Positions 9,891-43,958 of a stretch of DNA of 64,000 nucleotides are shown one piece after another (positions within the stretch are counted from its first letter, which is position 1; each line of letters starts with the position of its first letter). The DNA lies in the IMG/VR virus record IMGVR_UViG_3300037400_003376, positions 130-64,129 of that record; one strand, 5' to 3'. The notes below the pieces were generated by a model. It searched no databases. It was not told where the DNA came from and saw nothing but the letters and a program-made list of their open reading frames with translations. Source of the DNA: a virus (lineage: Duplodnaviria; Caudoviricetes). The position numbers and the translations under genes were made by a program.

Positions 9891-9898
9891 TATATTTG
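9891..9898 (+). promoter_or_regulatory. Bacteroidota -7 element TATATTTG
   Basis: Exact TAnnTTTG match 43 nt upstream of ATG 9942. Confidence 0.6.
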
Positions 9899-9941
9899 TA
9901 TTGAAAATTTGTTATGTTAACTTATTTATAATAGCAAAATT

Positions 9942-11402: not shown

Positions 11403-11405
11403 TTG

Positions 11406-11413
11406 TATATTTG
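11406..11413 (+). promoter_or_regulatory. Bacteroidota -7 element TATATTTG upstream of ssb
   Basis: Exact TAnnTTTG match in the intergenic gap. Confidence 0.6.
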
Positions 11414-11455
11414 GATAAGAAATAGATGTTTAACAAATAAATAAAATTTTAACGT

Positions 11456-21573: not shown

Positions 21574-24270
21574 ATGGAAGATACTAAAAAAATATTATTA
21601 AACTCAAGTAACAGTAAAATGTCTGTTAATGGAGATATTTCATTAAACATTGACTTGAGTAGTGACGAGAAAAAATTCCCGCCAAATGGCATTAATGCTA
21701 ATATCGACCAATACCGACAATATATAAGAGAAAAAGATGCGTCGAATAAATATCGTTTTGTTTTCACAATCAATTCGATATGTAGTAACGTATTATACAA
21801 TCATGTAACTGAAATAACCGAAAAAACGAAAGAAGGAAATATTAAATTTTATGGGTCAGAAGGTGTTGAAGTTAAAAAAAATTACAATAAGTACGTACAA
21901 TATAAGTATGATTCCGACAAAACATTAAATAGGGCTGATTTAATTAAGGATACTGGTTATAGTCATGAGAAATGCGGCAATTTCACATATATGCCTGGTA
22001 TTGATATTTTTAATAACCATAGATTTAGAAACAAGGAATTTGTTATAGTTGCGGATAAGGGAAATATCAACAAATGTGTAGATTATAATACAATATCCGA
22101 TACACTTAGGGAATATAATGGAACCGTATTACAAACAATTGCAACTATTAACGAATCAGATACTCATTTATATTACAAAGATACCTTAAAGACATATATA
22201 GAATCAATAAGAGATAATTTAATAGAAAAAGATGGATGGTTTGGATTTATTAACACTGCTGGTATTGATATTAACAATTGTAAACTTAATAACGACGACA
22301 TCATAAACATCAATAAAGTTATTAACAATAAAAAAGCGTGTGATTTTATTGATTTGTATCCAGATAGAACATTATTCTCATTTATACCGAATAAAAACAA
22401 AAGTTTAAATAGAGAAGAACGAAACTGGGATTACTGTATAACATACCCTTATAAGAATTTTTATTTGAACAAATTAATTTCATTATTAGATGATTCTGGT
22501 GAAAATGCAATATTAAACGGCATGTTAGCCGAGTTTTGCGATTCAAACGGTAATAAATTACCAGATGAGGAATTGGGAAGTCTATTGAATATAAATTTTA
22601 GAGAGGAGTCTTCCGATGTAATGCTATGTACAAAAATAAAAAACAATATAAAGAGTGGAGATTACATAAGGTTGCATCTTGTTATCAATAGCCAAGTTTA
22701 TTTCACAATAAGAACGAATGTAAAGGTTAGAAACGTTGGAATTGAGGGATATAACAATATGTACTATTTTACTCTAAACAAGAGTGATATTTTATCTGGA
22801 ATAAGGAGCATTTCATTACAAAATGGCGGTGAATTGAATGGTTTACATTGTTATGTTCAAAGAATTGTTAACGGAAGGCCGTGCAAGTACTACTTCAGAA
22901 AATTTAGAAGAATTCCTAATTTTAAAAATACTGATATATATAATGACAGTAAATTATCAAATGATGCAATTAAAAAAGTCGTGTTTAATGATTTTGACTC
23001 ATCAATAAACAAATTAGGGTTCGGAACCAACATATATGGAGACAGAATGGCACAGATAGTATATACAGATGATATTGATACTAGTAACATATATGATAAT
23101 TTAGGAAGAGAATTACATGAACTATATTTAACACTTATAAAAACAAATAGGGGTAATAAATTATGGTATAACGATAAGAATTATTCCAGCAAAGAAATAG
23201 AATGTTCACATTGTTTTAGTGATATAACTTCAGGTATAGACATGCCATGGCCTTATGATGGAGATGAAGACGACTATAACGTACATAAAATACATAACAT
23301 ATCATCTGGATTTACAGGAAACCCAAAAATTCAAAAATCAGTAGAACCGCTAGAAAGGCATATTACTTTGAGTGGTTCATCAAAGGATGAAGAAAATTAT
23401 GACGGCACATTCTTTGGTGACATTGTTGAATTGGATGAATTAAATGTAGAAGAATACGTTTTAGAGGACGTACAGCATAGATTCAATACGATGCAAAGGG
23501 AATATACAAATGACGGTGAGTTCAGCGCTATAACTATAAATGAAATTATAACGGATGATTATGACGGTGCATTTAGTGCGTCGACAGAAAACTATTTAGA
23601 CGACTATTTCATAAATCTAGCACCAGAGGGTTATTATTATAAAGCGCATTACAGAATACCAATTAGGGAATTTTCAAGTACGGTGAATGAGGGCCAACAT
23701 ACGATTGTTAAATTCGACGAAATCAATACGATTTCATCATCAGTTGCCGTTAGTACAATAACTGGAGTGACTGATAAAAACTATTATTTCCAAAAAGGAG
23801 ATGAAATCAATATTTATGATAAAGATAAAAAGAAACATATTGGTGTAATAACGGATGTATCTGGAATCGACTTCACTAATATAACTTTCGACATATACGA
23901 TGAGAGTATTAATATTATCGATAGTGAAAAACTTAATTTCAACTTCTTTAAGCCGAACCCAATAAAGCCTTCAACTGCTTATGATTTTGACGATGGAAGC
24001 GGGGTCTATAGATGGAGAAATATTGAAAGTTTTGAGTTTATAAGAAATGATAGCCCATTATACGACGATGTGTTTACAAACGGCGCACATTATATACACC
24101 AAAATATCAATTTCTTCCTAAGAAGACAAGACCCACATGAATTTTTTAGTTTAAATCCGATTAATAACGATGCTTTCTATTATGAGTATCAGTTACTTGA
24201 ACAATCTGGAAAAGAGAAAGATATAACACCTGCGCAACACTTTACAGAAGGAGATATACAAATATGTTAA
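21574..24270 (+). CDS. Virion structural protein (898 aa)
   Basis: Operon context only. Confidence 0.65.
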   Translation: MEDTKKILLNSSNSKMSVNGDISLNIDLSSDEKKFPPNGINANIDQYRQYIREKDASNKYRFVFTINSICSNVLYNHVTEITEKTKEGNIKFYGSEGVEVKKNYNKYVQYKYDSDKTLNRADLIKDTGYSHEKCGNFTYMPGIDIFNNHRFRNKEFVIVADKGNINKCVDYNTISDTLREYNGTVLQTIATINESDTHLYYKDTLKTYIESIRDNLIEKDGWFGFINTAGIDINNCKLNNDDIININKVINNKKACDFIDLYPDRTLFSFIPNKNKSLNREERNWDYCITYPYKNFYLNKLISLLDDSGENAILNGMLAEFCDSNGNKLPDEELGSLLNINFREESSDVMLCTKIKNNIKSGDYIRLHLVINSQVYFTIRTNVKVRNVGIEGYNNMYYFTLNKSDILSGIRSISLQNGGELNGLHCYVQRIVNGRPCKYYFRKFRRIPNFKNTDIYNDSKLSNDAIKKVVFNDFDSSINKLGFGTNIYGDRMAQIVYTDDIDTSNIYDNLGRELHELYLTLIKTNRGNKLWYNDKNYSSKEIECSHCFSDITSGIDMPWPYDGDEDDYNVHKIHNISSGFTGNPKIQKSVEPLERHITLSGSSKDEENYDGTFFGDIVELDELNVEEYVLEDVQHRFNTMQREYTNDGEFSAITINEIITDDYDGAFSASTENYLDDYFINLAPEGYYYKAHYRIPIREFSSTVNEGQHTIVKFDEINTISSSVAVSTITGVTDKNYYFQKGDEINIYDKDKKKHIGVITDVSGIDFTNITFDIYDESINIIDSEKLNFNFFKPNPIKPSTAYDFDDGSGVYRWRNIESFEFIRNDSPLYDDVFTNGAHYIHQNINFFLRRQDPHEFFSLNPINNDAFYYEYQLLEQSGKEKDITPAQHFTEGDIQIC

Positions 24271-27200
24271 CGATAAAGACAAATGCAAATAATTGTAAAT
24301 TAACTTACACTCCGTTAAACGTCAGTTCAATAAGTACTGGCGAGACAGTTAATGATGATATTACTATTATTACAGGTGGAGGTCATAATTTAAGAGAAAA
24401 TGATGAAGTTGTTTTTATTCGCCAAGATGGTGAATCTATCTCATATTTAACTCGCGCAGAAGTTAAAGATGTTGCTGACAAAAAGACATTTACAGTTAAT
24501 GGCTTCGACAAATATTTAATTGAAGTTAACGGTTACAAGCAGTCTTTTATTAGATATTCTCAAATGATTTCAAAAATAGAAACAAGCCAAGACATACCAA
24601 TACATTTTGACACGGTGCTATATTTAAACGCAGATCCATATTTAGTTGAAATAACAGGTGAAACAATAGATAGCAGTATTATAAGAGAATACGGTAGTTC
24701 CTTAATTTCGGTTGAAATTGGAACAGATATTGAAACTATAGAAGACTCCATATTTATTGGTTGTTATAATTTAACTTCAGTAACTATTCCAAATAGTGTT
24801 ACAAGTATAGGTGATTACGCTTTCTACGGATGTTCGCAATTAAAAAATATCTATATTGGTGATGGAATAAAATATATTGGAAAACAGGCGTTTTACCTTA
24901 TCAACGAAGATGCGGAGATCTATATCACAGCAAAAGAGCCACCAGTTTTAGGTGACTCATATACATTTCGAACAACGCTGCAAATTGGAGGAGATTTTAC
25001 ACCCCCAAAATTCTTCGTTCCTATTGATGTTCTTAATATATATAAGGGAATTTATATGATGCCAAGTAGTCTTGATACACTTAATAGTGGTATCCCAGAA
25101 AGTTATATATGTCTGAATACAGATGAACATATTTTTGTCACGAATAAGGATGAAATAAATGTTAAAAGAAGATATTTATGGGATACAAAGGATGAAGAAT
25201 TTAAATATGATGGTGCTTTAGTAGTTTGTGATGATGATTATTTTACTTTTGATGATTTATTTTTAATTCAAAGTTTTGGTAGTGGTAATACATCTTGTCA
25301 AAATAACAAATTGAATATTACTGCAACAACTGTTGGTTATGAGCCAATTTTATTGACAAACTGTTTAATTGGCGTTGATTTTAACGGAAATGATGATAAA
25401 TATCATATTTATATACCATATGACGAAAATATTGAATTTGCTAGTAAATTAGAAGATAATCTTTCAAATACTACTTTTACAAGCGACGACATTCGATTCT
25501 TATATGATGGAAACAATGAAATGGTATTTGGAAATGAAGAAAAGCCAGGATCTTATGTTAGTAAGGTATGTGGAGATATTGAGGTTGATTTTAATATCGG
25601 CAGTAATTTTGAAGTAAATTTACATAATGAAGAACAAACTTCTAATTATATTGAAAAAATCAAAAAAAACAACATAAACAAAATTATTGATTATGAACGT
25701 TACCAATATACTCCGATGTATTATGACGGTAAGATTCCAGAAGAATATAATGGTGTCACTATTGATGCTGATGAATATTTGAAAGAAAATTCAGATAAAA
25801 TTGACGATAAATTAAAACGAGTTAATGAAATAAAATTTCGTTTATATTTCAGAAAGAAGGATTTCACCCTATATGATGAAGATGGTAGTATCATAGCAGA
25901 AACTGGTGATACAAACGCAACAGATTACGTTGATTTCGGAACATGGCAAACTGATGACACTGGGTATTGGAATAACTATGATTTAAGAAGTGATGGCAAA
26001 TGTTTAGTAGATGTATATAAGGGATATAATATTTATGGAGATTTGTTAGGTAATTTAGGCTTCACGGATGATGATGTATATTTTCAAAAAGATGCATTCA
26101 AAAAATCATTTTTGAGATTATCGTTTTATGATAGTCCAAATAGGGAAACTCAAAAATTGTTATATTATTCGACAATTTATTTCGATACAAATGTGTTTAG
26201 CAGTAATTACATAAAAGGTTTAAATGCGTGGAGAGAAGACGAAACATATACCCCAAGATATAATCAATTAGTATTTGCATATGACATAGCAGATAAATTC
26301 AAGAAGAAGGGCGCGTCCGTATTAACGGCAGAAATGTCTTGTTCAGATAAGTATGACGATAGTCGTAGTAGTGACGGATTTTATTTACATTTATTCGATA
26401 AGTTAGTTAGTGGAAATACGTGTACGCCTATTTATATGAAAGCCGAATTTAATAATGCTAAATTCGGTAAAACGGTACCAATGATTCGCCCTATATTCGG
26501 GAGGACAAACAGAAGAATACCACCAACAAATTCATCATTCCCTAGAGAGTATATGAGGGGGAAGAAAAATGATGCTGGAGATGTATATAACTGGGTTGAT
26601 ATGAATATGTTGTTACAAGATATGTATACCAAGTTATATATAAAATATGATTTCAACACACAACAATTCGTATGGTTTGTTCCACAAAGTGTAGACACTA
26701 ATATAAATGAGACATTGACGTTTGAGTTTTTTGAACCAAGAGTCAAGGGTTATGATTTTGGTTCCTATGATATATTACATGGTAATGATGTCGGATATGG
26801 GACAACGGATGGTAAGCCAGATTGGTTCCACAGCGAATTTAATACCAACTATGAATGGATTACAGAATCTGGCCAAACAGAGAGTGAGTGGGCTTCAGAG
26901 TTCGATGGATGTTGTCTAATGACTACAGCCGTAACTATAGAAGGCGAAAATATATTAGATGGAACAAAATTATTCAATAATAGTTCAATAAGTAAAATAG
27001 ATAGAATTTGGATAGATGGAATGATGATCAATCCAGACGCAGAGACTGGAGTTTATGAAACAACACATTTCCAATTGCCAGATATTTCATTTACTGGGAA
27101 GACGACTACTGATGAATATTTTTTATGGACCGCAACAACAACACAGGAAATGTGGTCTGATGTATATGAAGATTGGTTTATAAATCCGAATATTACTCCT

Positions 27201-28097
27201 AAAAAAATACATAGTGTTAATTATTATTTTAAGACAAATAAGAAAGACCAAGTTAGTTTGATAGATGAATTGTATTTGGGCATAAACAATAATAAAAAGA
27301 CAAAGGAAATAACTGATACATTATGGACCGATCTAAAAAGTAGTATTCCATCGCAGCCGTCCGAAACATTACCGAGCGGAATGTTTAGTGAAATACAAAG
27401 TCTAAGATGTGTTAATATCGTTAAGCATGGAAATAAAAATTTCACAACTATAGGAAATGGTGCATTTGGTAACTGTCAAAATCTTATAAAAATCAATATC
27501 GATAATAGTGCGGCCGATATTATAGGTAAAAACTGCTTTGCTGGATGCAGATCAGTAAAGACTGCTGATTTGGAGAATACTAAAATTATTTTAAGAGAAG
27601 CATTCCAAGGATGTTATACATTATCAAATGTTACTTTTAGTAATGGGTTAAAATATATAGGATGTGGTGCATTTGGAAATACAAGAGTTAGAAATATTCA
27701 ATTGCCGAACAGTATTTTAAGAATAGGTAATAGTGCATTTAGAAGATGCTACCAATTAAGTTCATTTAATATAACTGGAACTAACTCGGTATTAACTATA
27801 GGAAAGCGTATTTTCGCTGAATGCGCAATACTAAAATATAATTTAGTAAGACAGATAAAAAGTAGATACAATTATTATGGCGGTACGCCAGATATTATAC
27901 AATATTTCCTGAATAATGGGAATACAATAGTTTTTTATGACGCACGCAGTAATAAATATGTAACACTTTCTCTCGCCCCAGATAAAGATAGAGGTAAAAT
28001 AATGTATCATTATAGACATATTAATTATTACCAATATATAAACAGAGAACAATTAGGGGTGTTAAATTTCGAAGACTGGTACAATTATTTGTTCTAA
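24264..28097 (+). CDS. Structural protein with two BspA-type (LRR_5) leucine-rich-repeat blocks
   Basis: LTSVTIPNSVTSIGDYAFYGC at about 24700-24955 and IGxxAFxxC repeats at about 27370-27840. Confidence 0.75.
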   Translation: MLTIKTNANNCKLTYTPLNVSSISTGETVNDDITIITGGGHNLRENDEVVFIRQDGESISYLTRAEVKDVADKKTFTVNGFDKYLIEVNGYKQSFIRYSQMISKIETSQDIPIHFDTVLYLNADPYLVEITGETIDSSIIREYGSSLISVEIGTDIETIEDSIFIGCYNLTSVTIPNSVTSIGDYAFYGCSQLKNIYIGDGIKYIGKQAFYLINEDAEIYITAKEPPVLGDSYTFRTTLQIGGDFTPPKFFVPIDVLNIYKGIYMMPSSLDTLNSGIPESYICLNTDEHIFVTNKDEINVKRRYLWDTKDEEFKYDGALVVCDDDYFTFDDLFLIQSFGSGNTSCQNNKLNITATTVGYEPILLTNCLIGVDFNGNDDKYHIYIPYDENIEFASKLEDNLSNTTFTSDDIRFLYDGNNEMVFGNEEKPGSYVSKVCGDIEVDFNIGSNFEVNLHNEEQTSNYIEKIKKNNINKIIDYERYQYTPMYYDGKIPEEYNGVTIDADEYLKENSDKIDDKLKRVNEIKFRLYFRKKDFTLYDEDGSIIAETGDTNATDYVDFGTWQTDDTGYWNNYDLRSDGKCLVDVYKGYNIYGDLLGNLGFTDDDVYFQKDAFKKSFLRLSFYDSPNRETQKLLYYSTIYFDTNVFSSNYIKGLNAWREDETYTPRYNQLVFAYDIADKFKKKGASVLTAEMSCSDKYDDSRSSDGFYLHLFDKLVSGNTCTPIYMKAEFNNAKFGKTVPMIRPIFGRTNRRIPPTNSSFPREYMRGKKNDAGDVYNWVDMNMLLQDMYTKLYIKYDFNTQQFVWFVPQSVDTNINETLTFEFFEPRVKGYDFGSYDILHGNDVGYGTTDGKPDWFHSEFNTNYEWITESGQTESEWASEFDGCCLMTTAVTIEGENILDGTKLFNNSSISKIDRIWIDGMMINPDAETGVYETTHFQLPDISFTGKTTTDEYFLWTATTTQEMWSDVYEDWFINPNITPKKIHSVNYYFKTNKKDQVSLIDELYLGINNNKKTKEITDTLWTDLKSSIPSQPSETLPSGMFSEIQSLRCVNIVKHGNKNFTTIGNGAFGNCQNLIKINIDNSAADIIGKNCFAGCRSVKTADLENTKIILREAFQGCYTLSNVTFSNGLKYIGCGAFGNTRVRNIQLPNSILRIGNSAFRRCYQLSSFNITGTNSVLTIGKRIFAECAILKYNLVRQIKSRYNYYGGTPDIIQYFLNNGNTIVFYDARSNKYVTLSLAPDKDRGKIMYHYRHINYYQYINREQLGVLNFEDWYNYLF

Positions 28098-28101
28098 AAG
28101 A

Positions 28102-28131
28102 AAAAATCTCACTAATTTTAGTGAGATTTTT
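28102..28131 (+). terminator. Rho-independent terminator
   Basis: AAAAATCTCACTA / TAGTGAGATTTTT perfect stem. Confidence 0.85.
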
Positions 28132-28175
28132 ATATAAATATTGAATTAAAACATGATATTTTTATATTTATATAT

Positions 28176-28304
28176 GGGTGACGAGAGATATACCCCACGT
28201 GCGTCCCTGATGCAACGACGGAAATGTCAATGAGTGGAATGATCTACTGGTTGAAAGAAGGCTAGATAGTGTATGATTCGGCCTAGCGCAATTCCTCGTC
28301 ACCC
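28176..28304 (+). ncRNA. Candidate structured non-coding RNA (129 nt), family unknown
   Basis: GC-rich island in an AT-rich gap; 10-bp terminal stem GGGTGACGAG/CTCGTCACCC; internal hairpins; TATTTATA 3 nt upstream and GTTTTT downstream. Confidence 0.65.
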
Positions 28305-28325
28305 GTTTTTAATATTACATGGAAT

Positions 28326-31300
28326 ATGGAGTTTATAAGCAAAAATAATTCATTAGAAACGGCAAAAAACAGGCTAGACATTAGTGGCTTAACTTATATA
28401 CAAGGCACTCAATATGTTTATGACAGAATTTTGAACAAAGAAACCAATGACAAAATAATTAAATACCTCCCTCTTATAGAATCTGAAAATGGTTACATAT
28501 TAAGATATAAAAATTTAATTAGACAATATTATTGGTTAGTTAATGAGTTTATACCTAGTTGTTCATACGAGAAACTATGTATCCGAAAAGGTAAAAAAAC
28601 GTGGATTCAATATGACAATCCAATTGACGCATTAAGAAAATATTTCACGTTTAGTTTTTATAATAACGATAATTTAATCATATCAATAAGCGTTGCAAGT
28701 GGAAATACGGCAACGCCATTTACCCCAAGTAAAGACGGATATAATTTTATTGGGTGGACAACTTCTGATGGTGGTAATACTTTTTTTGATTTCAACACTC
28801 CAATTTCAGAAGATACAAACGTTTATGCTAAGTATGCAATCAAAGAAGTTGAAATACGTTTCGTACTTAATAATGGTCAGCCAGATGTTGTTATCTTTGT
28901 AAATTATGGAAGTACACCATCTATACAAGAACCAGAAAAAGAAGGATACACATTTAACGGATGGTATCCAGAAATAAGTGAGGCTACCGTAAATGCAACA
29001 TATGAAGCAACATATACTCAGGATATTTATATAGTCCGATTCTTTGATATCATCGATTCCGAACACGTTCTAAATGACTACGGTAATCAGCCAATCAATA
29101 GTGGCTCTACATCTGAATATAGATTGGTTAGAACAGAAACAAGTGCATTACATGGCCAATCGTCTTATTATCTTACACAACCGACATACCAACATTTTGA
29201 ATGTATAGAAGAAAGTGGATATACCTGGTGGATTGATAGAGAAGGCAATCCTATTTCAGCATCGACATTTTTGGATATAACACATGATATTCTCGAAGTT
29301 TACCCTAAATTAACGAAGAAAAATTACAATGTATTATTTCTGGACTGGGACAATAGCATGATTTCACAACAAACTGTGACGTATCTTGATGATGCAACTG
29401 CACCAAATAACCCTTCAAGGCCAAATTACACATTTATTGGGTGGGATAGATCATATACAGGGATTGCAAATGATACTATAATTCATGCAAGATACATAGG
29501 TGATACTCTAAATGTAATTTATATGCTTCCAGATATGCTCGATGTTTTTACTATATATTCTAGTGTCACAACAACATTTAATTCAACGGCACCAATAGTG
29601 GAAAATCCAAGCACAGGAAGTTATCCACCAGAAGATTATGGTGTTTTTGACGGATGGTATACTGATGATCAATATACAAGCCAATTTGATTATACGAGTC
29701 TACTGCACAGTGATACTGTAATATATGGAAAATGGAAAACGGAATTTAGTGTAACGTTCTATAACTGGGATGGGACACTTATTACTGGTGACACACAAAC
29801 TGGATTTGCTAACCCAGTATACGTTGGTTATGGAGGTGATGTGACGGATGCAGAATTAGACTTAATCATTGAAAATATGACAGATAAGCCAGGGTATGAA
29901 TTCTTGGGATGGAGTATGCCTACTACTGGAATTACAAGTGACACAAGAGTTACTGCTGTATTCGATGAAACGCAAATGTGCCTTGTTAGATTCATTAACG
30001 ATTTTGATGGAAGTATTATATCATCCGTAACTGTGCCATTTGGTTCAACAATATTAGTTTCAGACTATCCGCAAGCACCAGAAGTTGAAAATATGGTATT
30101 TAATAGATGGGATGGGTATACATCAGAGGTATTTTCAGATACAGACGTATACGCCATATACGTATACACAAATATAACAGTATCTTTTATTGATTATTAT
30201 AAAAACGAATTAGGCAGTGAGACTGTTGCTTATGGACAAACTGGACAGACTCCTAATTACATCGTAGAAGATGCAACTGCCAGGGGATATAACGGTAATG
30301 AAGATTATGTTATATCAACATTGCGTTTCAATGGGACTTATTGCTTAGTTAGAGATGAATTTGATCCAGAAACTGGATGTTCAACACCAGAAGAGACCAT
30401 AATAACAGAAAAAAACAACACATTTATGGCTCAATATGACGAAATTGCCACATCCGTCACTACATGTAATGTTGCCTTCTATAACTATGAGTCGATATAT
30501 TTGTTTACAGACACAGTAATGTATGGTACTGTAATTGATGGAGACTATAGTTCAGAAGTAGTATCAATAATGGAGGCATCTGGATATACACCTGATCCAA
30601 ATATCTATGAATTTTATGGATGGGAAGATGGAAGCGGAAATGAATATATCATAGGCCAAAATAACCCAACAATAACTGGTGATATAAGCCTATATGCTAA
30701 ATATAGGTTAATTACTTACAATGTTCAATTCTTTGTTCAGAGCAATCCAGAATACTATCCAGACCTAATAGATTTACCTATACATTCATTAGAGACAATT
30801 GCCATTAAAAATACTGGCATTAATAGACCAGATTGCAGTAATGTACCAGAGAGAATATACTTCGAAACATTCTGCGAAGGATTAAATAATAGATGGTATA
30901 CAAATCCTAGTTGCACTATAGAATGGGTGTTTAAACAAGATGTACAAATGCAACCAGTTGCAAATCCAGATTTAGTTACCGACAATATGATATTATATGG
31001 CAAATATGTTGGTAGAGAATATACATTAACCTATGATACAAATAGTGGAAGTTCTATACCTCAAGAAACATATAGATATCCAGTACCAACTGTTAGACCA
31101 GCGGATCCAACAAAAGGAGATGGAACATTTATTGGCTGGTATACTGATAACGAAACATTTGAAAATGAGTTCGTATTTGGTCAGACATTAAAATCTAACA
31201 CAACTATTTATGCCAAATGGTTCGAAGCACCAGAAGAAAATACACTTATTTACAATGCAACAGCCGACCTAAAAGCATATATGCCAGATATGGGGTCTGC

Positions 31301-34202
31301 GCACTTGTTACAAGAACATTGTGTATGGGATATATTAACTGGCGATGGTATATTGGTATATGACGCACCTATTGAAACGCTTAATATTGGTACATTAAAT
31401 CAAGATAATAGTGTTACGGTTAATACTGAAATAAAGAGAAATTTAAGAAAAATTACAATACCAAGCAAAACAGAAAATGTTGTTATTGGCCAATTCGAAG
31501 ATTGTAGGTATTTAAATACTATAAATGTAACACAACAAACACATGAATCATATCATTATTATTCCAACAATGGCATATTATGGCGTGATTTGGGCGGCAA
31601 TAGTAGATTAGAATGCTATCCACAGGCAAAAGTAGGTAATTCTTTCATTTTGGAAGATTTCAATTCTGGAGAATTTATCATTGTTGGCGAACAGTGTTTC
31701 GCAAACTGTAAAAACTTAAAATATATTAGATTAAACAATCTTGTTATGTCATTAGAAAGTAAGGCATTTAAAAATTGTACAAATTTAGAAGAAATTACAT
31801 GTAGTTATGAGCCTTATTCTTATGTAACAAGTGATACATTTGACGGGGTAGATGTCGAGAATTGTAAATTATATGTTCCTTGCAGATCATATAATGATTA
31901 TATTAATAATCAGATATGGAGTCAATTTGATATACAATGTTTCGGAAGTATATTATATTTAGATAATAACACAGATTTAGTTATTGAAGATAATATTTTA
32001 ACCGAAGATGGAATTAATGTTATTTTAACACAACACAATGTTAATAGGAGTAATGTTATTGGTGCCGAGATTGGACTAAACGTCACAAGTATTGATGACT
32101 CTGCATTTTCTGGGTGCACAAATTTAACCTCTATTACATTACAAGATAGTGTTACTAATATAGGTGATGATGCTTTTTCAAATTGTCACAGTTTAGGAAA
32201 TGTTGTTATAGCAGATAGTGTTACAGAGATAGGTAAGAAAGCCTTTTATAATTGTAGTTCGTTGTCTTCGTTGACGATAGGTAGTGGTGTAACAGTTATT
32301 AATAATCAGGCATTCCAATATACTTCATTGGAGTATCTATTTATACCATATACTGTTTCACAAATAGGTTGCCATGCATTTTCTGATTGCACAGGACTAA
32401 CTTCAATAGAGACGGACAGAATTACTCCAGCAATTATATGTAATAATAGTTTCGATAATACGAATAATTGTCCAATATATGTTCCTTGTAGTGCAATAAC
32501 AGATTATACATCGGACTCACAATGGAGTACGTATGAGGATAGATTTGATTGTCGAAGTTATGTTAAATTTACATCACTAAGTGGTGATAGTACTATCAGA
32601 TTATCAAAAATAAGTACAAATCAAACATTTGAATATAGTTTCGACCAATACACTTGGTCCGCTAGCACAACGGCAAATACAGGTACAATTACATTAAGTG
32701 AAGGAGATGAGGTTTATTTTAGAGGAATATTAAGAGGCGATAATTCTTCAAGCAATTATAGCCAATTTTCTATAGGTGGAAAAGTATCTGTATCTGGAAA
32801 TATTAATAACCTATGGAATTATAATAACTTAGAACAACCATTATATAAGTATTGTGGCGCTAATTTATTTAGAGTTTGTTATGGCCTGATTGAAGCCAGG
32901 GAACTAGTATTAGGGACATCAGCGACTACGTTAGCAGATGGTTGCTATGGAGCGATGTTTTATAATTGCCAGTATTTGATTAGTGGACCAGAATTGCCAG
33001 CAATCAATTTAGTAACTAGATGTTATTCAATGATGTTTTATAAATGCGAAAGAATAGAATATATAAAATGTTTAGCAGAAAGTGGTATTGATACGGATAA
33101 CAGTACAACTAAATGGATAAGTGGAACAACAGATAGTGGTGTATATTTTGAAATGAAGAGCAGTGTCGCATGGCCTTCTGGTTACAATGGAATAAATCCT
33201 ACGTGGACAAAAGTTAGAACTGATTTTACAACAGATACACAATTATCACCAGTAAATTATTTAACTTTCACCGCGCGAGAGGATTCATTTATAGGGTTTA
33301 AGAATATAAGTACAAATCAGACAGTATATTTAAGTCAAAATCTTACTGATTGGGTTACTTTTACTAATTCTGAATCCAAGACTTGTTTCCACATAAACAG
33401 TGGAGAAACTATTTATTTATGTGGTAGGCTTTCTGGGGCAAATAGTAATAGCGATTATACAAATTTCATTGTTGAGAAAATTCCAGGGTATATAAACGTT
33501 GTGAACGAAGGTGTAAAAATTGACGGAAATATTAATTCGTTGTGGAATTATCAAAATTTATCACTTTATGCGTATTGTGGTTATGAATTATTTCGTAGTT
33601 GTCATGGCCTAATTGATATAAGCGGTTTAATATTTCCTACCGCAAATAAAGAAGCTTGTTACTTATATGCATTCCAATATTGTTCAAATTTAAGATATGT
33701 GCCAATATTACCAGCAACTAGTCTTGGTGCGATGTGTTATCAACATATGTTTAGTTATTGTACATCATTAACAACAATTCCGTCTAACATGTTACCAGCG
33801 ACAACTATAAATGGGGGCTGTTATGCTTTTATGTTCAATGGTTGTAGTAAATTAACCAACACGCCTACGATATTGCCAGCCACCGCTTTAACCCAATCTT
33901 GTTATGCCTCAATGTTTAGTAATTGTTCATTAATAACAACAGCACCAGAATTACCAGCAACTGGACTAACAACTTTCTGTTACCTTAGTATGTTCTATGG
34001 TTGTTCTAACTTGAACTATATAAAATGCCTTGCAGTTAGCGGAATAAGTGAGAGTGATAGTACAACTAATTGGGTATCTGGTGTCCCAACTGGGCAAGCA
34101 GCACAGGAGAAGGGCTGTACGTTTATTCAACACCCAGATGCTGATTGGGGCAGTCCTGGAGTTAGTTCAATACCTGACGGATGGGCCGTATCAAGTGCAT
34201 AA
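28326..34202 (+). CDS. Giant adhesin-like virion protein (1958 aa): about 11 InlB B-repeat/Flg_new-like domains, BspA LRRs and two C-terminal LRR modules
   Basis: Repeated P..P.K.GYTF.GW....YA.Y units at 28640-31230; IGDDAFSNC-type LRRs; LPATxL..CY..MF..C..L repeats. Confidence 0.85.
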   Translation: MEFISKNNSLETAKNRLDISGLTYIQGTQYVYDRILNKETNDKIIKYLPLIESENGYILRYKNLIRQYYWLVNEFIPSCSYEKLCIRKGKKTWIQYDNPIDALRKYFTFSFYNNDNLIISISVASGNTATPFTPSKDGYNFIGWTTSDGGNTFFDFNTPISEDTNVYAKYAIKEVEIRFVLNNGQPDVVIFVNYGSTPSIQEPEKEGYTFNGWYPEISEATVNATYEATYTQDIYIVRFFDIIDSEHVLNDYGNQPINSGSTSEYRLVRTETSALHGQSSYYLTQPTYQHFECIEESGYTWWIDREGNPISASTFLDITHDILEVYPKLTKKNYNVLFLDWDNSMISQQTVTYLDDATAPNNPSRPNYTFIGWDRSYTGIANDTIIHARYIGDTLNVIYMLPDMLDVFTIYSSVTTTFNSTAPIVENPSTGSYPPEDYGVFDGWYTDDQYTSQFDYTSLLHSDTVIYGKWKTEFSVTFYNWDGTLITGDTQTGFANPVYVGYGGDVTDAELDLIIENMTDKPGYEFLGWSMPTTGITSDTRVTAVFDETQMCLVRFINDFDGSIISSVTVPFGSTILVSDYPQAPEVENMVFNRWDGYTSEVFSDTDVYAIYVYTNITVSFIDYYKNELGSETVAYGQTGQTPNYIVEDATARGYNGNEDYVISTLRFNGTYCLVRDEFDPETGCSTPEETIITEKNNTFMAQYDEIATSVTTCNVAFYNYESIYLFTDTVMYGTVIDGDYSSEVVSIMEASGYTPDPNIYEFYGWEDGSGNEYIIGQNNPTITGDISLYAKYRLITYNVQFFVQSNPEYYPDLIDLPIHSLETIAIKNTGINRPDCSNVPERIYFETFCEGLNNRWYTNPSCTIEWVFKQDVQMQPVANPDLVTDNMILYGKYVGREYTLTYDTNSGSSIPQETYRYPVPTVRPADPTKGDGTFIGWYTDNETFENEFVFGQTLKSNTTIYAKWFEAPEENTLIYNATADLKAYMPDMGSAHLLQEHCVWDILTGDGILVYDAPIETLNIGTLNQDNSVTVNTEIKRNLRKITIPSKTENVVIGQFEDCRYLNTINVTQQTHESYHYYSNNGILWRDLGGNSRLECYPQAKVGNSFILEDFNSGEFIIVGEQCFANCKNLKYIRLNNLVMSLESKAFKNCTNLEEITCSYEPYSYVTSDTFDGVDVENCKLYVPCRSYNDYINNQIWSQFDIQCFGSILYLDNNTDLVIEDNILTEDGINVILTQHNVNRSNVIGAEIGLNVTSIDDSAFSGCTNLTSITLQDSVTNIGDDAFSNCHSLGNVVIADSVTEIGKKAFYNCSSLSSLTIGSGVTVINNQAFQYTSLEYLFIPYTVSQIGCHAFSDCTGLTSIETDRITPAIICNNSFDNTNNCPIYVPCSAITDYTSDSQWSTYEDRFDCRSYVKFTSLSGDSTIRLSKISTNQTFEYSFDQYTWSASTTANTGTITLSEGDEVYFRGILRGDNSSSNYSQFSIGGKVSVSGNINNLWNYNNLEQPLYKYCGANLFRVCYGLIEARELVLGTSATTLADGCYGAMFYNCQYLISGPELPAINLVTRCYSMMFYKCERIEYIKCLAESGIDTDNSTTKWISGTTDSGVYFEMKSSVAWPSGYNGINPTWTKVRTDFTTDTQLSPVNYLTFTAREDSFIGFKNISTNQTVYLSQNLTDWVTFTNSESKTCFHINSGETIYLCGRLSGANSNSDYTNFIVEKIPGYINVVNEGVKIDGNINSLWNYQNLSLYAYCGYELFRSCHGLIDISGLIFPTANKEACYLYAFQYCSNLRYVPILPATSLGAMCYQHMFSYCTSLTTIPSNMLPATTINGGCYAFMFNGCSKLTNTPTILPATALTQSCYASMFSNCSLITTAPELPATGLTTFCYLSMFYGCSNLNYIKCLAVSGISESDSTTNWVSGVPTGQAAQEKGCTFIQHPDADWGSPGVSSIPDGWAVSSA

Positions 34203-34234
34203 TATTAATTAAAAAAACTAAATAGGGAATAAGT

Positions 34235-35731
34235 ATGTTATATAATAAAGACATAAATAATCCATTTCTATTTGATGAGATAACGGATAATAACATCGGT
34301 GTTAGTTTTGATGAAGAGTCAGCCAACACTGGTGATGTTGTTTGTATTACTTCTTTATATGAAGAGTTAATCAGAAGGTTTGGTTCTTATGAGAATGCAA
34401 AATTTATTTACGAATTTGCGAATAGTGCTATTATCGATGGAAAATATACAAAGAACTATCCTATTCAATCAACTCCATATCTTGATTTCACTATATATTT
34501 AGAACAAACGATAATAGACGAAGGCCTTTTATCTCCATACGCTACTAAATGGGTTCCAGGGGAAAAATATTATGTCGGTGATACTGTTTACTATTCAATT
34601 GACGGATCAGACGAGCACATAAAGACATATATTTTAAAAAAGGGAGATCAAACGGAGACATTTGAAATACCATTTTCGGTATATGAAGCAAATTCTGGTG
34701 ATTCTAACTATTTTGAATCTAATGGCAAGTATTATAGGAAAACGGCTTGTTATAGGGGTTATTATAGCAAAAAAACAAAATTGACTTATTTTGATACGTT
34801 AAATAATGATGGGACGTTAAGATTAGAACATTGGAAGGAGGACATTACAAATAATATTAGTCCAGATATACAACACGAAGGGATAATCGGAAAAACAGCA
34901 TCATTATTGGAGAATATTATGAGAAAAAGAACCGATATGGATGCTTCTGGTACTACATTACCATTTATATTACATTATGACAATATAATTGAAGGTGGTG
35001 TAATTATTGGTAGAGAATTAAATACTGGAGTAACTGAAACTTTCTATATGTGTGGGAATATGAATGTAAACTATCATTTTGACAGTGGAAAAGTTGTATC
35101 AGATGTATTAGATAGCGTTACGTTCTATAAGTCGGACAGTGCGCCAGAAATGGGGGTTTCTTTTACTGAAATTGATAAGCCGATTATAATAACATCAAAT
35201 AAAGAAGCCTATACGAATGAGAATAATATAACTTCAATTGCTGGATGTGATATGATTCAATTTGTATATTATTCAAATGCAACATTAGTAAAAAGATTAA
35301 ATACCTGGGTCAGAAAAGAAAAAACTGGCGTTAAGTATGTTGAGACAAGGCCAATAGTTATACAAACAAGTGATTTTGATATAGAGGTTAAACATAGTGG
35401 GACTACTACGCTTACATTAACGTATATTGATGTTAATTCAAATGCGCAAAATGAAATTGATTATAGCAATGCTGATATTATTAATTCTTTAAAAACTGAT
35501 ACAAATTATTCGAACGTGTCAGTAGACAAAAGCCAATTGGGCGATGACTATTTTTTAAATACAAAAGTATTCAAAGATGAATCTACCATGGCACTACAAG
35601 ACATAACAGTCGATTTAGATGTAAACATAGAGCGAGGAATAGCCGAATCATTCCAAAAGCATAACATGCTTGGTGAAATATGCACGTTACAAGATTTGGA
35701 AAACTACAAAAATGGGAAATATTTAGAGTAA
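34235..35731 (+). CDS. Structural protein (498 aa)
   Basis: Operon context; W.PG.KYYVGD.VYY motif. Confidence 0.65.
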   Translation: MLYNKDINNPFLFDEITDNNIGVSFDEESANTGDVVCITSLYEELIRRFGSYENAKFIYEFANSAIIDGKYTKNYPIQSTPYLDFTIYLEQTIIDEGLLSPYATKWVPGEKYYVGDTVYYSIDGSDEHIKTYILKKGDQTETFEIPFSVYEANSGDSNYFESNGKYYRKTACYRGYYSKKTKLTYFDTLNNDGTLRLEHWKEDITNNISPDIQHEGIIGKTASLLENIMRKRTDMDASGTTLPFILHYDNIIEGGVIIGRELNTGVTETFYMCGNMNVNYHFDSGKVVSDVLDSVTFYKSDSAPEMGVSFTEIDKPIIITSNKEAYTNENNITSIAGCDMIQFVYYSNATLVKRLNTWVRKEKTGVKYVETRPIVIQTSDFDIEVKHSGTTTLTLTYIDVNSNAQNEIDYSNADIINSLKTDTNYSNVSVDKSQLGDDYFLNTKVFKDESTMALQDITVDLDVNIERGIAESFQKHNMLGEICTLQDLENYKNGKYLE

Positions 35732-35772
35732 AAATAACTATTAAAAAGTATTTATTATAAAATAGGCAATAT

Positions 35773-36687
35773 ATGGCAAATAATGGAACATATGGTACAA
35801 AAAGACCTGCATTAATTAATAATTCAGATGTTGATATATTCTATAGTTATAGACCGAATAGAAATACAGATGCACCTGGGTTTTCATCATTTATTAAACT
35901 AAGTAGCGATATACTTTCTAGTGTTGATGCATCCGATAACACTGGTAATAATTTAGGAGTACTACCAGGGGTTTATAATTTAAGATTACCATTAACACAA
36001 TTTAGTGATCCTGGCATATACACAATCTATATCAGGCCAAAGGAAATTGATACAACAATATTGGATGTTAGTTATCTTGCCGCATATCCAGATGTTCGTG
36101 GAATTATTTTAAACACAAGTAATATTAATGTGGAAGATAGTACAATTTTTAATAATGGAGAATTAGTGGGTTATAGGATTGAATTTCTTGATAATTCTGG
36201 TGTAAGAACTGGTGAATACAGATTGATTACTTCGAGTAATAGATGTGAACCTGTTGCGCAGAACTTAAATGACTCCGTACAGAATAGTATTCGTTATAGT
36301 TTTAACGATTCTAGCAATTTATTATTCTGCACCGTTACTCCATGTACAGCGATGTCATTTAAGAGTAGTGGCAATCCATATATTGGAGAAAATGGGCAAA
36401 GAATTAAGATAATAAACACAAAATTTAACCCAATAATGATGGAGGTTGAATTGGTTGAGCATGATGCTGAAACTATTTCAACTATGTTAGAGGGTGACCA
36501 AATTAGAAATCTCGATGCTGGACTTATTACTACATTTAATAAGGATGGTGAAATTTATCATCAAGCAACTTACGGGCATATGGTTAATAAAGCAACTGGT
36601 CTTAACGCCGATTACAAATTTAATCATAAAGATGATATTTACACAACAGAATCTGATAAAATGAAAGAAATCATAGATAATATATAA
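35773..36687 (+). CDS. Structural protein (304 aa)
   Basis: Operon context; preceded by TATTTATT at 35749. Confidence 0.7.
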   Translation: MANNGTYGTKRPALINNSDVDIFYSYRPNRNTDAPGFSSFIKLSSDILSSVDASDNTGNNLGVLPGVYNLRLPLTQFSDPGIYTIYIRPKEIDTTILDVSYLAAYPDVRGIILNTSNINVEDSTIFNNGELVGYRIEFLDNSGVRTGEYRLITSSNRCEPVAQNLNDSVQNSIRYSFNDSSNLLFCTVTPCTAMSFKSSGNPYIGENGQRIKIINTKFNPIMMEVELVEHDAETISTMLEGDQIRNLDAGLITTFNKDGEIYHQATYGHMVNKATGLNADYKFNHKDDIYTTESDKMKEIIDNI

Positions 36688-36693
36688 TAACTT

Positions 36694-39600
36694 ATGGCTG
36701 AGAACAGATATATAGTAACACATAGTAATTACACAATTAAGAGGAAGCATAAATTGCTTTCTGGGCATACTATATATGAAAGGGATTATATGACTACTAC
36801 AAATCTTGGCGGGTTTGATAGTGGTTCAATTCCTTATGGTGAAGGTAACTTTAAAATTGTTACTAATGAAGGTAAAAACTTAAAGAGGAAACATAAATAT
36901 GGTGATTGGTTAAAAAATGAGAATTGTGAACCAGACAGTGGAAATACTTGTGAGGTATTCTCACTAAGCAATATGCCAGAAATTTCCACCGAAATTACGA
37001 GTGAAACAAAGATAGAAATTAAACCAAACAAAAACAATTTCTTGGATTTTGTTTATTATGGAAGTTGTGAGGAAATGGTAAAATCCTCAATAGATGAAAT
37101 AATTATTAAATTTCCAGCTGAATTATATATAACTGGGGATAACTATGAATATTTAGACAACGCTGGTATAGCCAAAATTTTGGGTGGCGATAATATGGTT
37201 GTAATTGACAATCCGTTTGATATTGACATATCTTCAAATTCGGTCCCTCAAGACATTAAAAACAGTCCGACATATAATCCGTTTAGATATTTTAGTGAAA
37301 CTGTTTCAAAATATAGAGTTATAACTGATGAAGGATTCGAATTTTGTATTGACATATGGGATGTCAGCCTGCGAAATAAGCGTTGTTTCAAGGATGGCGA
37401 TATAACAGCAGTCATTACATTAAATCCAGATACAGATCATGAAATGATTATAAAAAGATACTATAAAAATGATACTTTCATTTTATTAACTGACAAAAAA
37501 CATGCTGGATGGAGAATACGCCCTACGGAAGGTGCAATAATTAACTTCTTTAACGGGTTAGATGATTTTGAGAGATTCTTATTAGAGAGGGAAAGCAATC
37601 CTATTTATTCAATAGAAGTCGACACTCCAAAGGAAAACGATAGGGGTGTAGAAATATCAAGAGATAAATATACATGGCCAACAAGTCATGGATATAATTT
37701 AGATATATCATCTGGCGCGTTTACGCGTTATTATGAATCTTTGTTAGATTTATCCGAATGGTACGACCAATATCGAGCCAATAACTTGTGGAGAAATATG
37801 ACTCACGACTCTATCAAAAACATGGATAGAACACATACCGATACATCGAGAGATGAAGATAATAAGGATTATAAGATAGGAACCACTAGAATACACGAAG
37901 CGTTAAATGTACTTGGCCGTTTCTTTGATGATATAAAAAGAAGTATAGATAATATCAAAACTACAAATACCATAACATACAATGAAAATAATAATACACC
38001 AGACTATTTCTTAAGCGATTCACTTCAATTGTCTGGTTGGGAAGTTAAGAGTGTAGTAGAAACACTGGATAAGAATGTAGTTACAGATATACTATATAGT
38101 GGCAGTAATAAGAAATATGATGTAAATGACGCAAATCTTCAATTTTTCAGAAATCTTAAACTAAATAGTAATGGACTATTTTCCAGAAAGGGGACAATAG
38201 AAGGAATTGAAATGTTATTATCATTATTTGGCCTTTGTTCCTATGATTGGGCGAGAAAATATTATAACAGTCTATCCGACAGTTTAAAAAAGAAGAGAGG
38301 CAGAAGAACACTATTGTGGGATGATCTTGACGAGGAAACAAAAATAAAATTATATGATTATTCATTGGATGAGTATTTAACGACTATAAAAAACACCCAA
38401 GAAGATGTTATAGATAGTGAATTACAATTACCAGTTGAGAAATATAATTTTTATAGGCAAAATTTTGGAACTCCAGATGACGGAAATGAATTGCATGGAT
38501 TACCGATAAGAATAGTGACAGTTGCTATCTCTCTTAATGACGGAACAATTGAACATAAGAAATATATGATTCCATGGTTCGATAAAAAAGAAACATTAGA
38601 CGGGGAACCATATTTTCAAATGTATGGAGGATGGGGAAAAGCATTAGATAAAGATATAACCCCAAATAAGGAATTATATCCAAATATAGATAGAATTAAC
38701 AGCATACCTGGCTTTACTATTTATGATGAGACAAAAAAATATCTTAAAATAGTAAATAGAATCGATGATTTAAGAGCATTAGAATTAGACGACGTACTTG
38801 ACAATGATATATTTTATGTAAATGATTTAACAGATTTTAACACTTATTATCCAAGTGAGGATATCAATGAAGCAACAAATTATTTTACAATTGCAGATCA
38901 CAACAATTTAGATATATACGGAAGTACAAGTTCTGCCACTGGATGGGTTAATATTGGTAAAACAGAAATGGCTTGCGAGACATGTGAACGGGATCTTTCA
39001 GCAGCAACGATACCTTATAAGGTTATGTATCTGGAATCAATTGTAGAATTGAACGCTGGGAACAATCCTCACGTTGGATATGGGAAATATGACGATGGAG
39101 AAGAATATTTAAATTATTTTAGACAAGTGTTTAGAGGTGCTATTGAAAGTGAAGGATTTACGGATGATGCATATGATTGTAATACAGGTGAATTGGTAAC
39201 TGGTATAACAAAATGCGGATTTAACGTACAACCACAAGTAGTTGATAATGTAAAAGTTTGGTTCTTTACCGATAATACAAAGAAAAACATATACCAATTA
39301 AGACAAATTACTGCGGAGGTATATGATAAGGACGATCCAGATATGAACACTTATGAAATACCATCTGGATACAAAGAGTCAAACACACAAGATAAGGTAA
39401 ATGTAGGTAAAACGGCATATACGAACGGGGAAGTCGGATTTAAATCGGATTTACAAGCATTTAATCTTGAAACTCAAGAAGAAAATAGTAATGACGAAGC
39501 ATCTGCAAACTCAATTATTAATACTAAAAAATTAGTCCTTAAATTTAATGATAAACTTGCCTTAAAAAATGGATTTAGAGAATATTTGTATGCTGTAATA

Positions 39601-39717
39601 TTACCGTACATTAAACAACTAATTCCATCAACAACTATATTTGAAGTAGTATTGAATAGTCAGGAAGTTGACTTTACATGTTTTAACATATCAGAAATAA
39701 TAGGAGTATCAAAATAA
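36694..39717 (+). CDS. Baseplate wedge-like protein (gp7 / P2 tail protein I-like signature)
   Basis: LFSRKGTIEGIEMLLSLFG and a C-terminal IKQLIPSTT, resembling gp7/gpI wedge proteins; precedes the fibre gene. Confidence 0.55.
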   Translation: MAENRYIVTHSNYTIKRKHKLLSGHTIYERDYMTTTNLGGFDSGSIPYGEGNFKIVTNEGKNLKRKHKYGDWLKNENCEPDSGNTCEVFSLSNMPEISTEITSETKIEIKPNKNNFLDFVYYGSCEEMVKSSIDEIIIKFPAELYITGDNYEYLDNAGIAKILGGDNMVVIDNPFDIDISSNSVPQDIKNSPTYNPFRYFSETVSKYRVITDEGFEFCIDIWDVSLRNKRCFKDGDITAVITLNPDTDHEMIIKRYYKNDTFILLTDKKHAGWRIRPTEGAIINFFNGLDDFERFLLERESNPIYSIEVDTPKENDRGVEISRDKYTWPTSHGYNLDISSGAFTRYYESLLDLSEWYDQYRANNLWRNMTHDSIKNMDRTHTDTSRDEDNKDYKIGTTRIHEALNVLGRFFDDIKRSIDNIKTTNTITYNENNNTPDYFLSDSLQLSGWEVKSVVETLDKNVVTDILYSGSNKKYDVNDANLQFFRNLKLNSNGLFSRKGTIEGIEMLLSLFGLCSYDWARKYYNSLSDSLKKKRGRRTLLWDDLDEETKIKLYDYSLDEYLTTIKNTQEDVIDSELQLPVEKYNFYRQNFGTPDDGNELHGLPIRIVTVAISLNDGTIEHKKYMIPWFDKKETLDGEPYFQMYGGWGKALDKDITPNKELYPNIDRINSIPGFTIYDETKKYLKIVNRIDDLRALELDDVLDNDIFYVNDLTDFNTYYPSEDINEATNYFTIADHNNLDIYGSTSSATGWVNIGKTEMACETCERDLSAATIPYKVMYLESIVELNAGNNPHVGYGKYDDGEEYLNYFRQVFRGAIESEGFTDDAYDCNTGELVTGITKCGFNVQPQVVDNVKVWFFTDNTKKNIYQLRQITAEVYDKDDPDMNTYEIPSGYKESNTQDKVNVGKTAYTNGEVGFKSDLQAFNLETQEENSNDEASANSIINTKKLVLKFNDKLALKNGFREYLYAVILPYIKQLIPSTTIFEVVLNSQEVDFTCFNISEIIGVSK

Positions 39718-39728
39718 AATAAAAACAA

Positions 39729-43862: not shown

Positions 43863-43876
43863 TATAATAACAATTT

Positions 43877-43912
43877 AAAAAAATCCATGGATTCACTTCC
43901 ATGGATTTTTTT
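43877..43912. terminator. Bidirectional terminator between convergent modules
   Basis: AAAAAAATCCATGGA-TTCACT-TCCATGGATTTTTTT. Confidence 0.85.
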
Positions 43913-43958
43913 ATCCTTCATAAGTTTCTTTTTCAATTTCAGTTTCCTGTTTTTCTTT

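Follow-up and report, generated by a model that had tools for sequence, protein, structure and literature searches.

Organization of the locus

The window, by which we mean the whole 64-kb stretch of DNA analyzed here, is part of an IMG/VR virus record that is ~19% complete according to CheckV, a completeness at which the window would represent a fragment of a jumbo phage. The record encodes gp25-like and wedge-like baseplate proteins, DnaB, an anaerobic ribonucleotide reductase, DnaJ, ClpP and two sigma-70-family factors encoded at 47621-48535 and 62428-63156, and the window DNA occurs in metagenomes of bovine and goat gut. Motifs of the form TTG...TAtaTTTG precede some early genes, TTG..TATATTTG motifs lie upstream of some window genes, and Shine-Dalgarno sequences are absent upstream of window genes (e.g. 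at 9860-9941, 11400-11455 and 51803-51850). The absence of Shine-Dalgarno sequences, taken together with the TTG..TATATTTG motifs, suggests a Bacteroidota-type host. The upstream motifs also suggest two promoter classes in this phage, one host-like and one TATTTATA-type.

Elsewhere in the window, a full-length DnaJ (J domain, zinc-finger and C-terminal domains) is directly followed by a ClpP protease (11938-13723). The weak PHROG match of ORF 11938-13050 to 'anti-termination Q-like' was rejected because it covers only the DnaJ zinc finger, and no Q-like gene was found among the genes of the window. Diverged tandem coding repeats occur within 57860-61100, with LRR-type units of 78-90 nt in 57331-58839 and 204-nt units carrying CxxC-type motifs, with weak treble-clef zinc-finger matches, in 59866-61437.

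The RNA element described here (28176-28304) is located in a 228-nt gap between an LRR gene (24264-28097) and an adhesin gene (28326-34202) that is the first gene of a transcription unit spanning 28326-43862. Three LRR adhesin genes are present in the window, and the element precedes only one of them. The leaders of the other window genes are short, A-rich and unstructured, which makes an RNA-bearing leader exceptional in this genome. The features of the locus are as follows, P designating paired segments and J joining segments.

24264-28097: upstream gene, encoding a 1277-aa BspA-type LRR protein
28102-28131, + strand: bidirectional intrinsic terminator (perfect hairpin and T-run) closing the upstream baseplate/LRR-protein unit; kept in 7 of 10 homologous loci
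28141-28175, + strand: predicted promoter module, a sigma-70-like match with TTGAAT at 28141-28146, a 16-nt spacer and TATATT at 28163-28168
28165-28175, + strand: invariant late-type motif TATTTATATAT, overlapping the TATATT of the promoter module
28176-28188, + strand: 5' strand of P1, made of GGGUGACGAG, a bulged A (28186) and GA; pairs with 28293-28304
28189-28197, + strand: J1/2, an invariant U (the end of AGAGAU) followed by a variable linker that holds strain variants 28195 and 28196
28198-28217, + strand: P2 hairpin of variable sequence; a hairpin is present here in 8 of 10 homologues, with wholly different sequences
28218-28226, + strand: J2/3 with the motif (U/A)ACG(G/U), ACGG at 28218-28221; ACG in all homologues
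28227-28254, + strand: P3 hairpin, UCAAU.AGUGGA / UCUACU.GUUGA; compensatory changes in 8 of 10 pairs
28259-28284, + strand: P4 hairpin, AGGCU (28259-28263) / GGCCU (28280-28284) with a 16-nt loop; compensatory changes in 4 of 5 pairs
28285-28292, + strand: J4/1 with the nearly invariant AGCGCA (28285-28290)
28293-28304, + strand: 3' strand of P1, UC followed by CUCGUCACCC
28305-28310, + strand: G and U-tract right after P1, a terminator-like tail; 5-7 U within the 8 nt after P1 in 10 of 10 homologues
28326-34202, + strand: gene encoding the 1958-aa adhesin, with a conserved N-terminal anchor domain, Listeria-Bacteroides repeats and BspA-type LRRs

A four-way junction kept by compensatory substitutions

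The element forms a GC-rich island, with a GC content of 0.40-0.47 vs 0.23-0.33 in its flanks; for 28176-28304 itself the value is 0.47, against 0.24-0.33 on either side. Its + strand folds with a minimum free energy of -49.6 kcal/mol (z -4.5), a value that none of 200 shuffled sequences equaled, and folding of the - strand is weaker (z -3.1). The motif TATTTATA is located at 28165-28172, and the 10-bp closing stem is formed by GGGTGACGAG (28176-28185) and the complementary CTCGTCACCC (28295-28304), directly followed by GTTTTT. A hairpin, CGTGCGTC-CCT-GATGC.ACG, occupies the P2 site at 28198-28217. All these parts, as well as the upstream terminator, had been reported in a first-pass annotation of the sequence and lie exactly where it had placed them. 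Furthermore, near-identical strains differ from the window RNA at just three positions, 28195 and 28196 in J1/2 and 28207 in the P2 loop; all three are unpaired, which we count in favor of the structure.

The annotation had called for a collection of homologues and a covariation check, and syntenic copies of the element were indeed found. Eleven distinct sequences, including the window, were aligned with plain MAFFT, fitted to no structure, and the consensus fold was computed with RNAalifold. This consensus recovered P1 (10 bp, a bulged A and 2 bp) and the hairpins P3 and P4. Compensatory changes affected 17 of the 27 pairs of the MAFFT alignment, compared with 5-8 when the partners were slid by 1-3 columns, and 89% of the cells were paired, vs 36-49% with partners slid in the same way. 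On four of five measures none of 500 shuffles reached the observed values, and a single shuffle did so on the fifth. The picture was unchanged with a model-based alignment.

Compensatory changes in P1 affect 5 of 12 pairs, with 93% of its cells paired. The outer half of this helix is swapped wholly between lineages while its pairing is kept (GGGUG/CACCC, ACGAG/CUCGU, CGGAG/CUCCG), and the stem of P4 exists as AGGC/GCCU, CGGC/GCCG, UGAC/GUCA and CAGG/CCUG, all of them paired. Constant parts are the inner half of P1 (CGAG-A-GA / UC-CUCG) with the U that follows it, the ACG of J2/3 and the AGCGCA after P4; the joining sequences AGAGAU, ACG and AGCGCA hardly vary. Since G-U is the commonest pair at three positions, the functional strand is the + strand and an inverted repeat acting at the DNA level is excluded. 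Our alignments show that the fold is a four-way junction closed by a 12-bp P1 and that the helices P1, P3 and P4 are kept by compensatory substitutions. We are all but certain that the locus holds a genuine conserved structured RNA on the + strand, and the notion of an orphan structured RNA between two tail or adhesin genes, advanced by the first-pass annotation, is strongly supported by synteny and covariation in the 11 distinct sequences.

P4 is a constant part of the consensus. The periphery of the junction is more variable. P2 is absent in homologues L076 and L079 and is not predicted in L006, and P3 has shrunk to almost nothing in L012. The P4 loop holds a second ACG motif in 8 homologues that is absent from the window. 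Inserts of up to ~50 nt lie between AGCGCA and the 3' strand of P1 in relatives, some of them with a GAAA-capped hairpin. A short ACAGAC-like motif occurs in J1/2 of L010 and L012 and in J4/1 inserts of L005 and L008; depending on the lineage, it is located just after the 5' strand of P1 or just before its 3' strand, sites that face each other at the junction.

Apart from the hairpin at the P2 site, the internal helices proposed earlier from the window sequence did not survive comparison, and P3, the best-supported internal helix, had been overlooked. The GACG-GAAA-TGTC hairpin and the CCAC/GTGG and TATAC/GTATG helices are not conserved in homologues. For GCTAG/CTAGC, the register of P4 was wrong: its pairing is lost in L077, L054 and L008, in which the AGGCU/GGCCU-type pairing covaries. 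An alternative pairing of the 5' GGGT with ACCC (28192-28195) is not conserved either, and strains carry C>A changes at 28195 and 28196. Pseudoknots and tertiary pairings sought by eye (J1/2 with the P4 loop, the P3 loop with UUCC, ACG with ACG) yielded none that is kept across homologues. Pairing of AUAUAC with GUGUAU is possible in the window sequence, and such pairings are confined to single sequences. We also looked for a c4/CI-like pairing of the RNA with the start-codon region, and nothing of this kind is conserved.

A protein-coding origin of the island was rejected because no ORF is conserved across homologues, in agreement with the earlier statement that no ORF explains it. The 44-aa minus-strand ORF (28168-28302) is kept in no homologue, and no conserved coding frame runs across the element, the open frames changing from one homologue to the next in both strand and frame. 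A search for a second copy in the window, using low-stringency blastn with 7-nt words and a repeat search, returned none.

Distribution of the element

Homologous loci were sought in ENA and Logan assemblies using the first 140 residues of the adhesin, its conserved domain, as the query, and one further IMG/VR record was added through a promoter-anchored DNA pattern. All 12 syntenic loci carry a copy of the RNA in the same gap (covariance model, 31-141 bits), which amounts to 11 distinct sequences including the window. The ten distinct copies besides the window come from rumen and gut metagenome contigs. Each record holds exactly one copy, always between the upstream LRR gene and the adhesin gene. 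Measured from the first to the last nucleotide of P1, the RNA is 129 nt long in the window and up to 205 nt in relatives. One copy (L079, 396-531) stands on a 1-kb low-coverage gut contig and has many G>T and G>A differences, which break P4 and change AGCGCA to AUCACA; it is either affected by sequencing damage or a decaying copy.

Wider searches extended this set little. Only two IMG/VR records carry the RNA: a P1-to-P1 pattern scan of IMG/VR gave zero matches, a scan for the promoter followed by GAGAGAT gave 60 loci, one of which (L054) is genuine by the covariance model, and broader protein-profile scans of IMG/VR returned the same record only. A pattern scan of metagenome contigs gave two matches, neither of which fits the RNA model. 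No relatives of the adhesin N-domain were found in genome contigs, and among GenBank phages there was no DNA match and no protein match for the adhesin N-domain or for the neighboring 304-aa protein. The distribution of the RNA is narrow, confined to a small group of uncultivated cattle-rumen jumbo phages.

Relatives outside this group help to place the RNA. Intermediate relatives (P0013-P0020) have N-domains that match at E values of 1e-16 to 1e-38. Others share the neighboring 304-aa gene (54-57% identity) and have no adhesin N-domain, no RNA and tightly packed genes. In a distant relative of the N-domain (L088, 4001-6193), the protein is a single unsplit chain of 730 aa. Its N-terminal part is similar to the first ~105 aa of the window's 1958-aa adhesin (28326-28640), and its residues 109-719 align with a separate 498-aa ORF of the window (34235-35731), with E values of 9e-25 and 1e-19. 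Upstream of the gene for this 730-aa protein lies a gap of only 44 nt, which holds a simple TATAAATA-type promoter motif and no RNA element. Because the 730-aa protein spans both the N-domain and the 498-aa ORF, repeat and LRR modules were evidently inserted, in the present clade, behind the N-domain of an ancestral tail gene, splitting it. The RNA is found only in the lineage with the inserted modules and the split gene, which supports a functional tie to the adhesin gene; as a single narrow clade was sampled, this co-occurrence could also reflect simple descent.

Comparison with RNase P RNA and other catalogued families

The covariance-model check against Rfam that had been proposed to expose an ordinary known family gave no family matching the element. 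A scan of the whole window at gathering score placed neither RNase P RNA nor any other Rfam family on the element. No element match, RNase P included, appeared at E<=10 for window 28050-28400, L005 and L008, or at E<=1 for L076, L078, L079 and L081; the weak E<=10 matches in the window fell on the upstream terminator hairpin or were noise. ARAGORN detected no tRNA or tmRNA in the window, and tRNA had no match in the window at Rfam gathering score and none in the element at E<=10. A tRNA-like element was rejected, since the RNA shares only its four-way topology with tRNA.

The first-pass annotation had drawn a likeness to the catalytic domain of bacterial RNase P RNA from the order of short motifs, while conceding that a canonical P4 helix could not be built. 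The concession was justified: the homologue alignment has no P4-type long-range helix, and no complementary conserved strand exists for one (the GAGGAAAGUCC-like CR-I with CR-V). The likeness itself dissolves in the alignment, where the cited motifs prove variable or mis-registered. One of them, GGAAATGTC, proves to be a joining segment that keeps nothing but ACG(G), and GGAAAUGUC, the look-alike of CR-I, consists of J2/3 and the first bases of P3 and likewise keeps only ACG(G). CTAGATAGTG corresponds to the 5' strand of P4 and its variable loop and TCGGCCTA to the 3' strand of P4, and both vary freely or covary among the 11 sequences, in which the conserved CR-IV and CR-V blocks of RNase P RNA are not seen. 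RNase P RNA of bacterial A/B, archaeal and type T was therefore rejected, for want of a model match, a P4 helix and the CR blocks.

Predicted transcription of the RNA and of the adhesin operon

Upstream of the RNA, TATTTATATAT is invariant, and TTGAnTTAAA is found ~18 nt before it in 9 of 10 homologues. The first paired nucleotide of P1 adjoins TATTTATATAT in 9 of 10 homologues. The arrangement TTGAAT-16-TATATT in the window predicts a transcription start at ~28175-28176, and covariation of the first two pairs of P1 indicates that both are transcribed. The beginning of the 5' strand of P1 is thus probably the 5' end of the transcript.

A module of ~45 nt, TTGAnTTAAAAC-N12-TATATTTATATAT (window 28126-28171), recurs at several other loci of related phages, where contig depth reaches up to ~9-fold that of neighboring sequence and where short AU-rich leaders and an ATG follow. 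Since the leaders that it precedes elsewhere are short and unrelated, the module would serve these phages as a general promoter, probably a shared one that is recognized by one of the phage sigma factors.

At the other end of the RNA, P1 has a GGG/CCC-type base, and the U-tract starts after 0-2 nt in 10 of 10 homologues, although it is interrupted in L076 and L077. As in an intrinsic terminator, a GC-rich stem abuts a U-tract; however, the hairpin is not a simple one with a short loop, as the 'loop' of P1 is a multi-helix domain of 105-190 nt, and a consensus terminator scan did not list P1 and its U-tract. The AUG of the adhesin comes 14-40 nt further downstream in homologues. This distance leaves no room for another promoter, and the adhesin mRNA must therefore carry the RNA as its 5' end. 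No strong terminator interrupts the 15.5-kb unit that follows (28326-43862), and a strong bidirectional one, at 43876-43913, closes it.

Possible roles of the RNA

Our preferred reading, to which we give a probability of roughly 0.45, is that the element would serve the 15.5-kb adhesin operon in cis as a 5' leader or attenuator domain; the RNA may in addition be released as a small RNA. We infer this role from sequence context, and the evidence points to the fallback of the first-pass annotation, which had allowed for a late noncoding RNA standing alone or for a leader or attenuator acting in cis on the 1958-aa adhesin gene. Transcription would start at ~28175-28176 and yield an RNA without an unpaired 5' tail. 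P1 and the U-tract would then act as an intrinsic terminator or pause, at which part of the transcripts would stop to give a discrete small RNA. In the transcripts that continue beyond this point, the folded domain would remain as a 5' leader and set the output of the 15.5-kb operon. The fully paired 5' end would probably also shield this very long mRNA. Candidate readers of the conserved junction (AGAGAU, ACG, AGCGCA) are a ligand, a phage protein or RNA polymerase itself. As no conserved antiterminator pairing was found, a regulatory switch, if there is one, is not visible in the sequence. A multi-helix 'loop' of 105-190 nt would be unusual in a terminator and counts against the leader/attenuator reading, as do the interrupted U-tracts of L076 and L077. 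Furthermore, invariant junction nucleotides and GNRA-capped extra helices go beyond what mere stabilization or attenuation would require, and they hint at a more specific partner or activity.

Such a partner would be expected if the element were a stand-alone, trans-acting late small RNA with its own promoter, a P1-closed body and its own terminator, the adhesin being expressed by leak-through. The target of this RNA would lie elsewhere and could be, for instance, a protein of the host or of the phage, as with 6S, Y or pRNA-type RNAs. The unit does look gene-complete, P1 being flanked immediately by a promoter motif on one side and a U-tract on the other; both ends are held in one helix, as in many stable small RNAs, and the conserved single-stranded motifs and GNRA-capped peripheral hairpins suggest a specific partner. 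However, the adhesin starts 14-40 nt further on without a promoter of its own, which necessarily makes the RNA an mRNA leader as well. Wherever the giant adhesin is missing the RNA is missing too, and neither a second copy nor another genomic context was found. We consider an independent small RNA unlikely, both as to its autonomy and as to such distant targets.

A bolder form of the leader reading would make the element a self-contained RNA control device of a new class, in which a four-way-junction 'aptamer', whose closing helix is at the same time the terminator stem, gates one giant receptor-binding adhesin. A small molecule, a phage protein or RNA polymerase would read the junction and so decide adhesin production. 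We hold this reading to be speculative and unlikely to be correct in full; if true, it would represent RNA-level control of the host-range equipment of a jumbo phage.

The element might instead allow the 15.5-kb operon to be completed without terminating transcription itself, either by put-like processive antitermination or as a 5'-protective RNA. It is promoter-proximal, acts on this reading in cis, has a fully paired 5' end and precedes an exceptionally long unit without internal terminators, and it occurs only in the lineage where a gene for ~730 aa became one for ~550-2594 aa and a separate ORF. This explanation is rather improbable, as it leaves the conserved U-tract after P1 unexplained, the architecture is unlike that of put, EAR or nut elements, and the RNA of L076 and L077 precedes adhesins of only 549-560 aa.

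A ligand-sensing riboswitch, with the junction as aptamer and the closing helix as terminator stem, would switch one of several adhesins according to host state, and of the window's three LRR adhesin genes the RNA indeed precedes a single one. The closed multi-helix junction, its ~20 invariant joining nucleotides, the dispensable peripheral helices and the U-tract right after P1 fit this picture, as does a conserved core kept by covariation (P1, P3 and P4, with AGAGAU, ACG and AGCGCA). Against it stand the lack of a match to any known riboswitch model, a very narrow distribution and an associated gene that is not metabolic. Moreover, a 12-bp GC-rich P1 should form without ligand, and neither strand of P1 has a conserved alternative partner that could provide an expression platform. 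A metabolite switch is therefore distinctly improbable.

Small self-cleaving ribozymes are common in phage context, and the compact junction with invariant nucleotides could recall one, just as the RNase P-like order of motifs, seen in the window sequence only, could recall a minimal RNase P. A ribozyme of either kind is nonetheless highly improbable: no RNase P, hammerhead, twister, twister-sister, hatchet, pistol or HDV-like match was obtained (E<=10 for three variants, E<=1 for four), the RNase P-like motifs are not conserved and lack a P4-type helix, and a 5' cleavage would have no substrate because the transcript seems to start at P1.

A DNA-level element, whether a recombination site, a MITE bounded by terminal inverted repeats, the template repeat of a DGR or a retron noncoding RNA, would account for the 10-bp terminal inverted repeats and the island of foreign composition. 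It has almost no probability left: the helices stay paired through compensatory changes and through G-U pairs, which would be mismatches in DNA or on the opposite strand; each record has one copy, with no VR-like second copy in the window; and the position is fixed in all relatives. The DGR template repeat and the retron RNA in particular were rejected, the window having no second repeat and no reverse transcriptase domain among its ORFs.

Significance and relation to known systems

To our knowledge, phage structured RNAs with both solid covariation and a defined genomic role are still few, and we know of almost nothing on late-gene control in jumbo phages of Bacteroidota-like rumen hosts. The boundaries of the present RNA are clear, with a promoter on one side and a U-tract and start codon on the other. 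Being compact, clearly bounded and available in natural variants that lack P2 or P3 or carry insertions, it is directly usable for transcription, probing and reporter work. If it gates or protects expression of the giant adhesin, it would represent a new mode of regulation of phage host recognition and a portable 5' module for synthetic biology in hosts without Shine-Dalgarno sequences. If it is only a stabilizing or attenuating leader, it would still be a useful new RNA family for annotation.

We place the element among the structured leaders or small RNAs that stand close to the promoter of a phage late operon, and our literature search found no published description of it. Large comparative screens of phage RNAs have yielded roughly 10,000 unnamed structured-RNA candidates (PMC10690425), and the present element resembles them in kind: it is intergenic, covaries, lies immediately before a phage structural gene and overlaps a terminator-like feature. 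It is a new RNA motif relative to the catalogued Rfam families. Since only two IMG/VR records carry the RNA, it is probably below the detection limits of screens of the PMC10690425 type.

Likeness to the catalytic domain of bacterial RNase P RNA (RF00010/RF00011) is superficial, limited to a closing helix and the order of short motifs in the window sequence; the phage RNA differs in having no covariance-model match and no P4 helix, and its look-alike motifs are not conserved in homologues. Like HK022 put RNA, the element is phage-encoded, located directly downstream of the promoter of a long operon and, on our reading, active in cis. The put RNA consists of two adjacent stem-loops of ~70 nt without a closing helix or U-tract, whereas the phage RNA has both; homology between the two was compared through the Rfam scan only.

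Riboswitch and attenuator leaders with a closing P1, such as SAM-I, resemble the element in their promoter-proximal closed junction, invariant joining nucleotides, dispensable peripheral helices and U-tract as apparent expression platform. Unlike these leaders, the phage RNA has neither an Rfam riboswitch match nor a separate terminator/antiterminator pair, precedes the gene of a virion adhesin and is limited to one phage clade.

In the late leader of lambda, transcription from PR' gives the 6S transcript, which ends at the intrinsic terminator tR', and the long late operon is expressed only by read-through mediated by Q. The lambda leader has no conserved multi-helix fold and its regulator is Q acting at the promoter; the phage RNA differs in that the terminator stem itself closes a covarying four-way junction and that no Q-like gene accompanies it. 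The arrangement is nevertheless the same as that of PR'-6S-tR': a late promoter, then a short transcript with a terminator-like end, and a long late operon just beyond.
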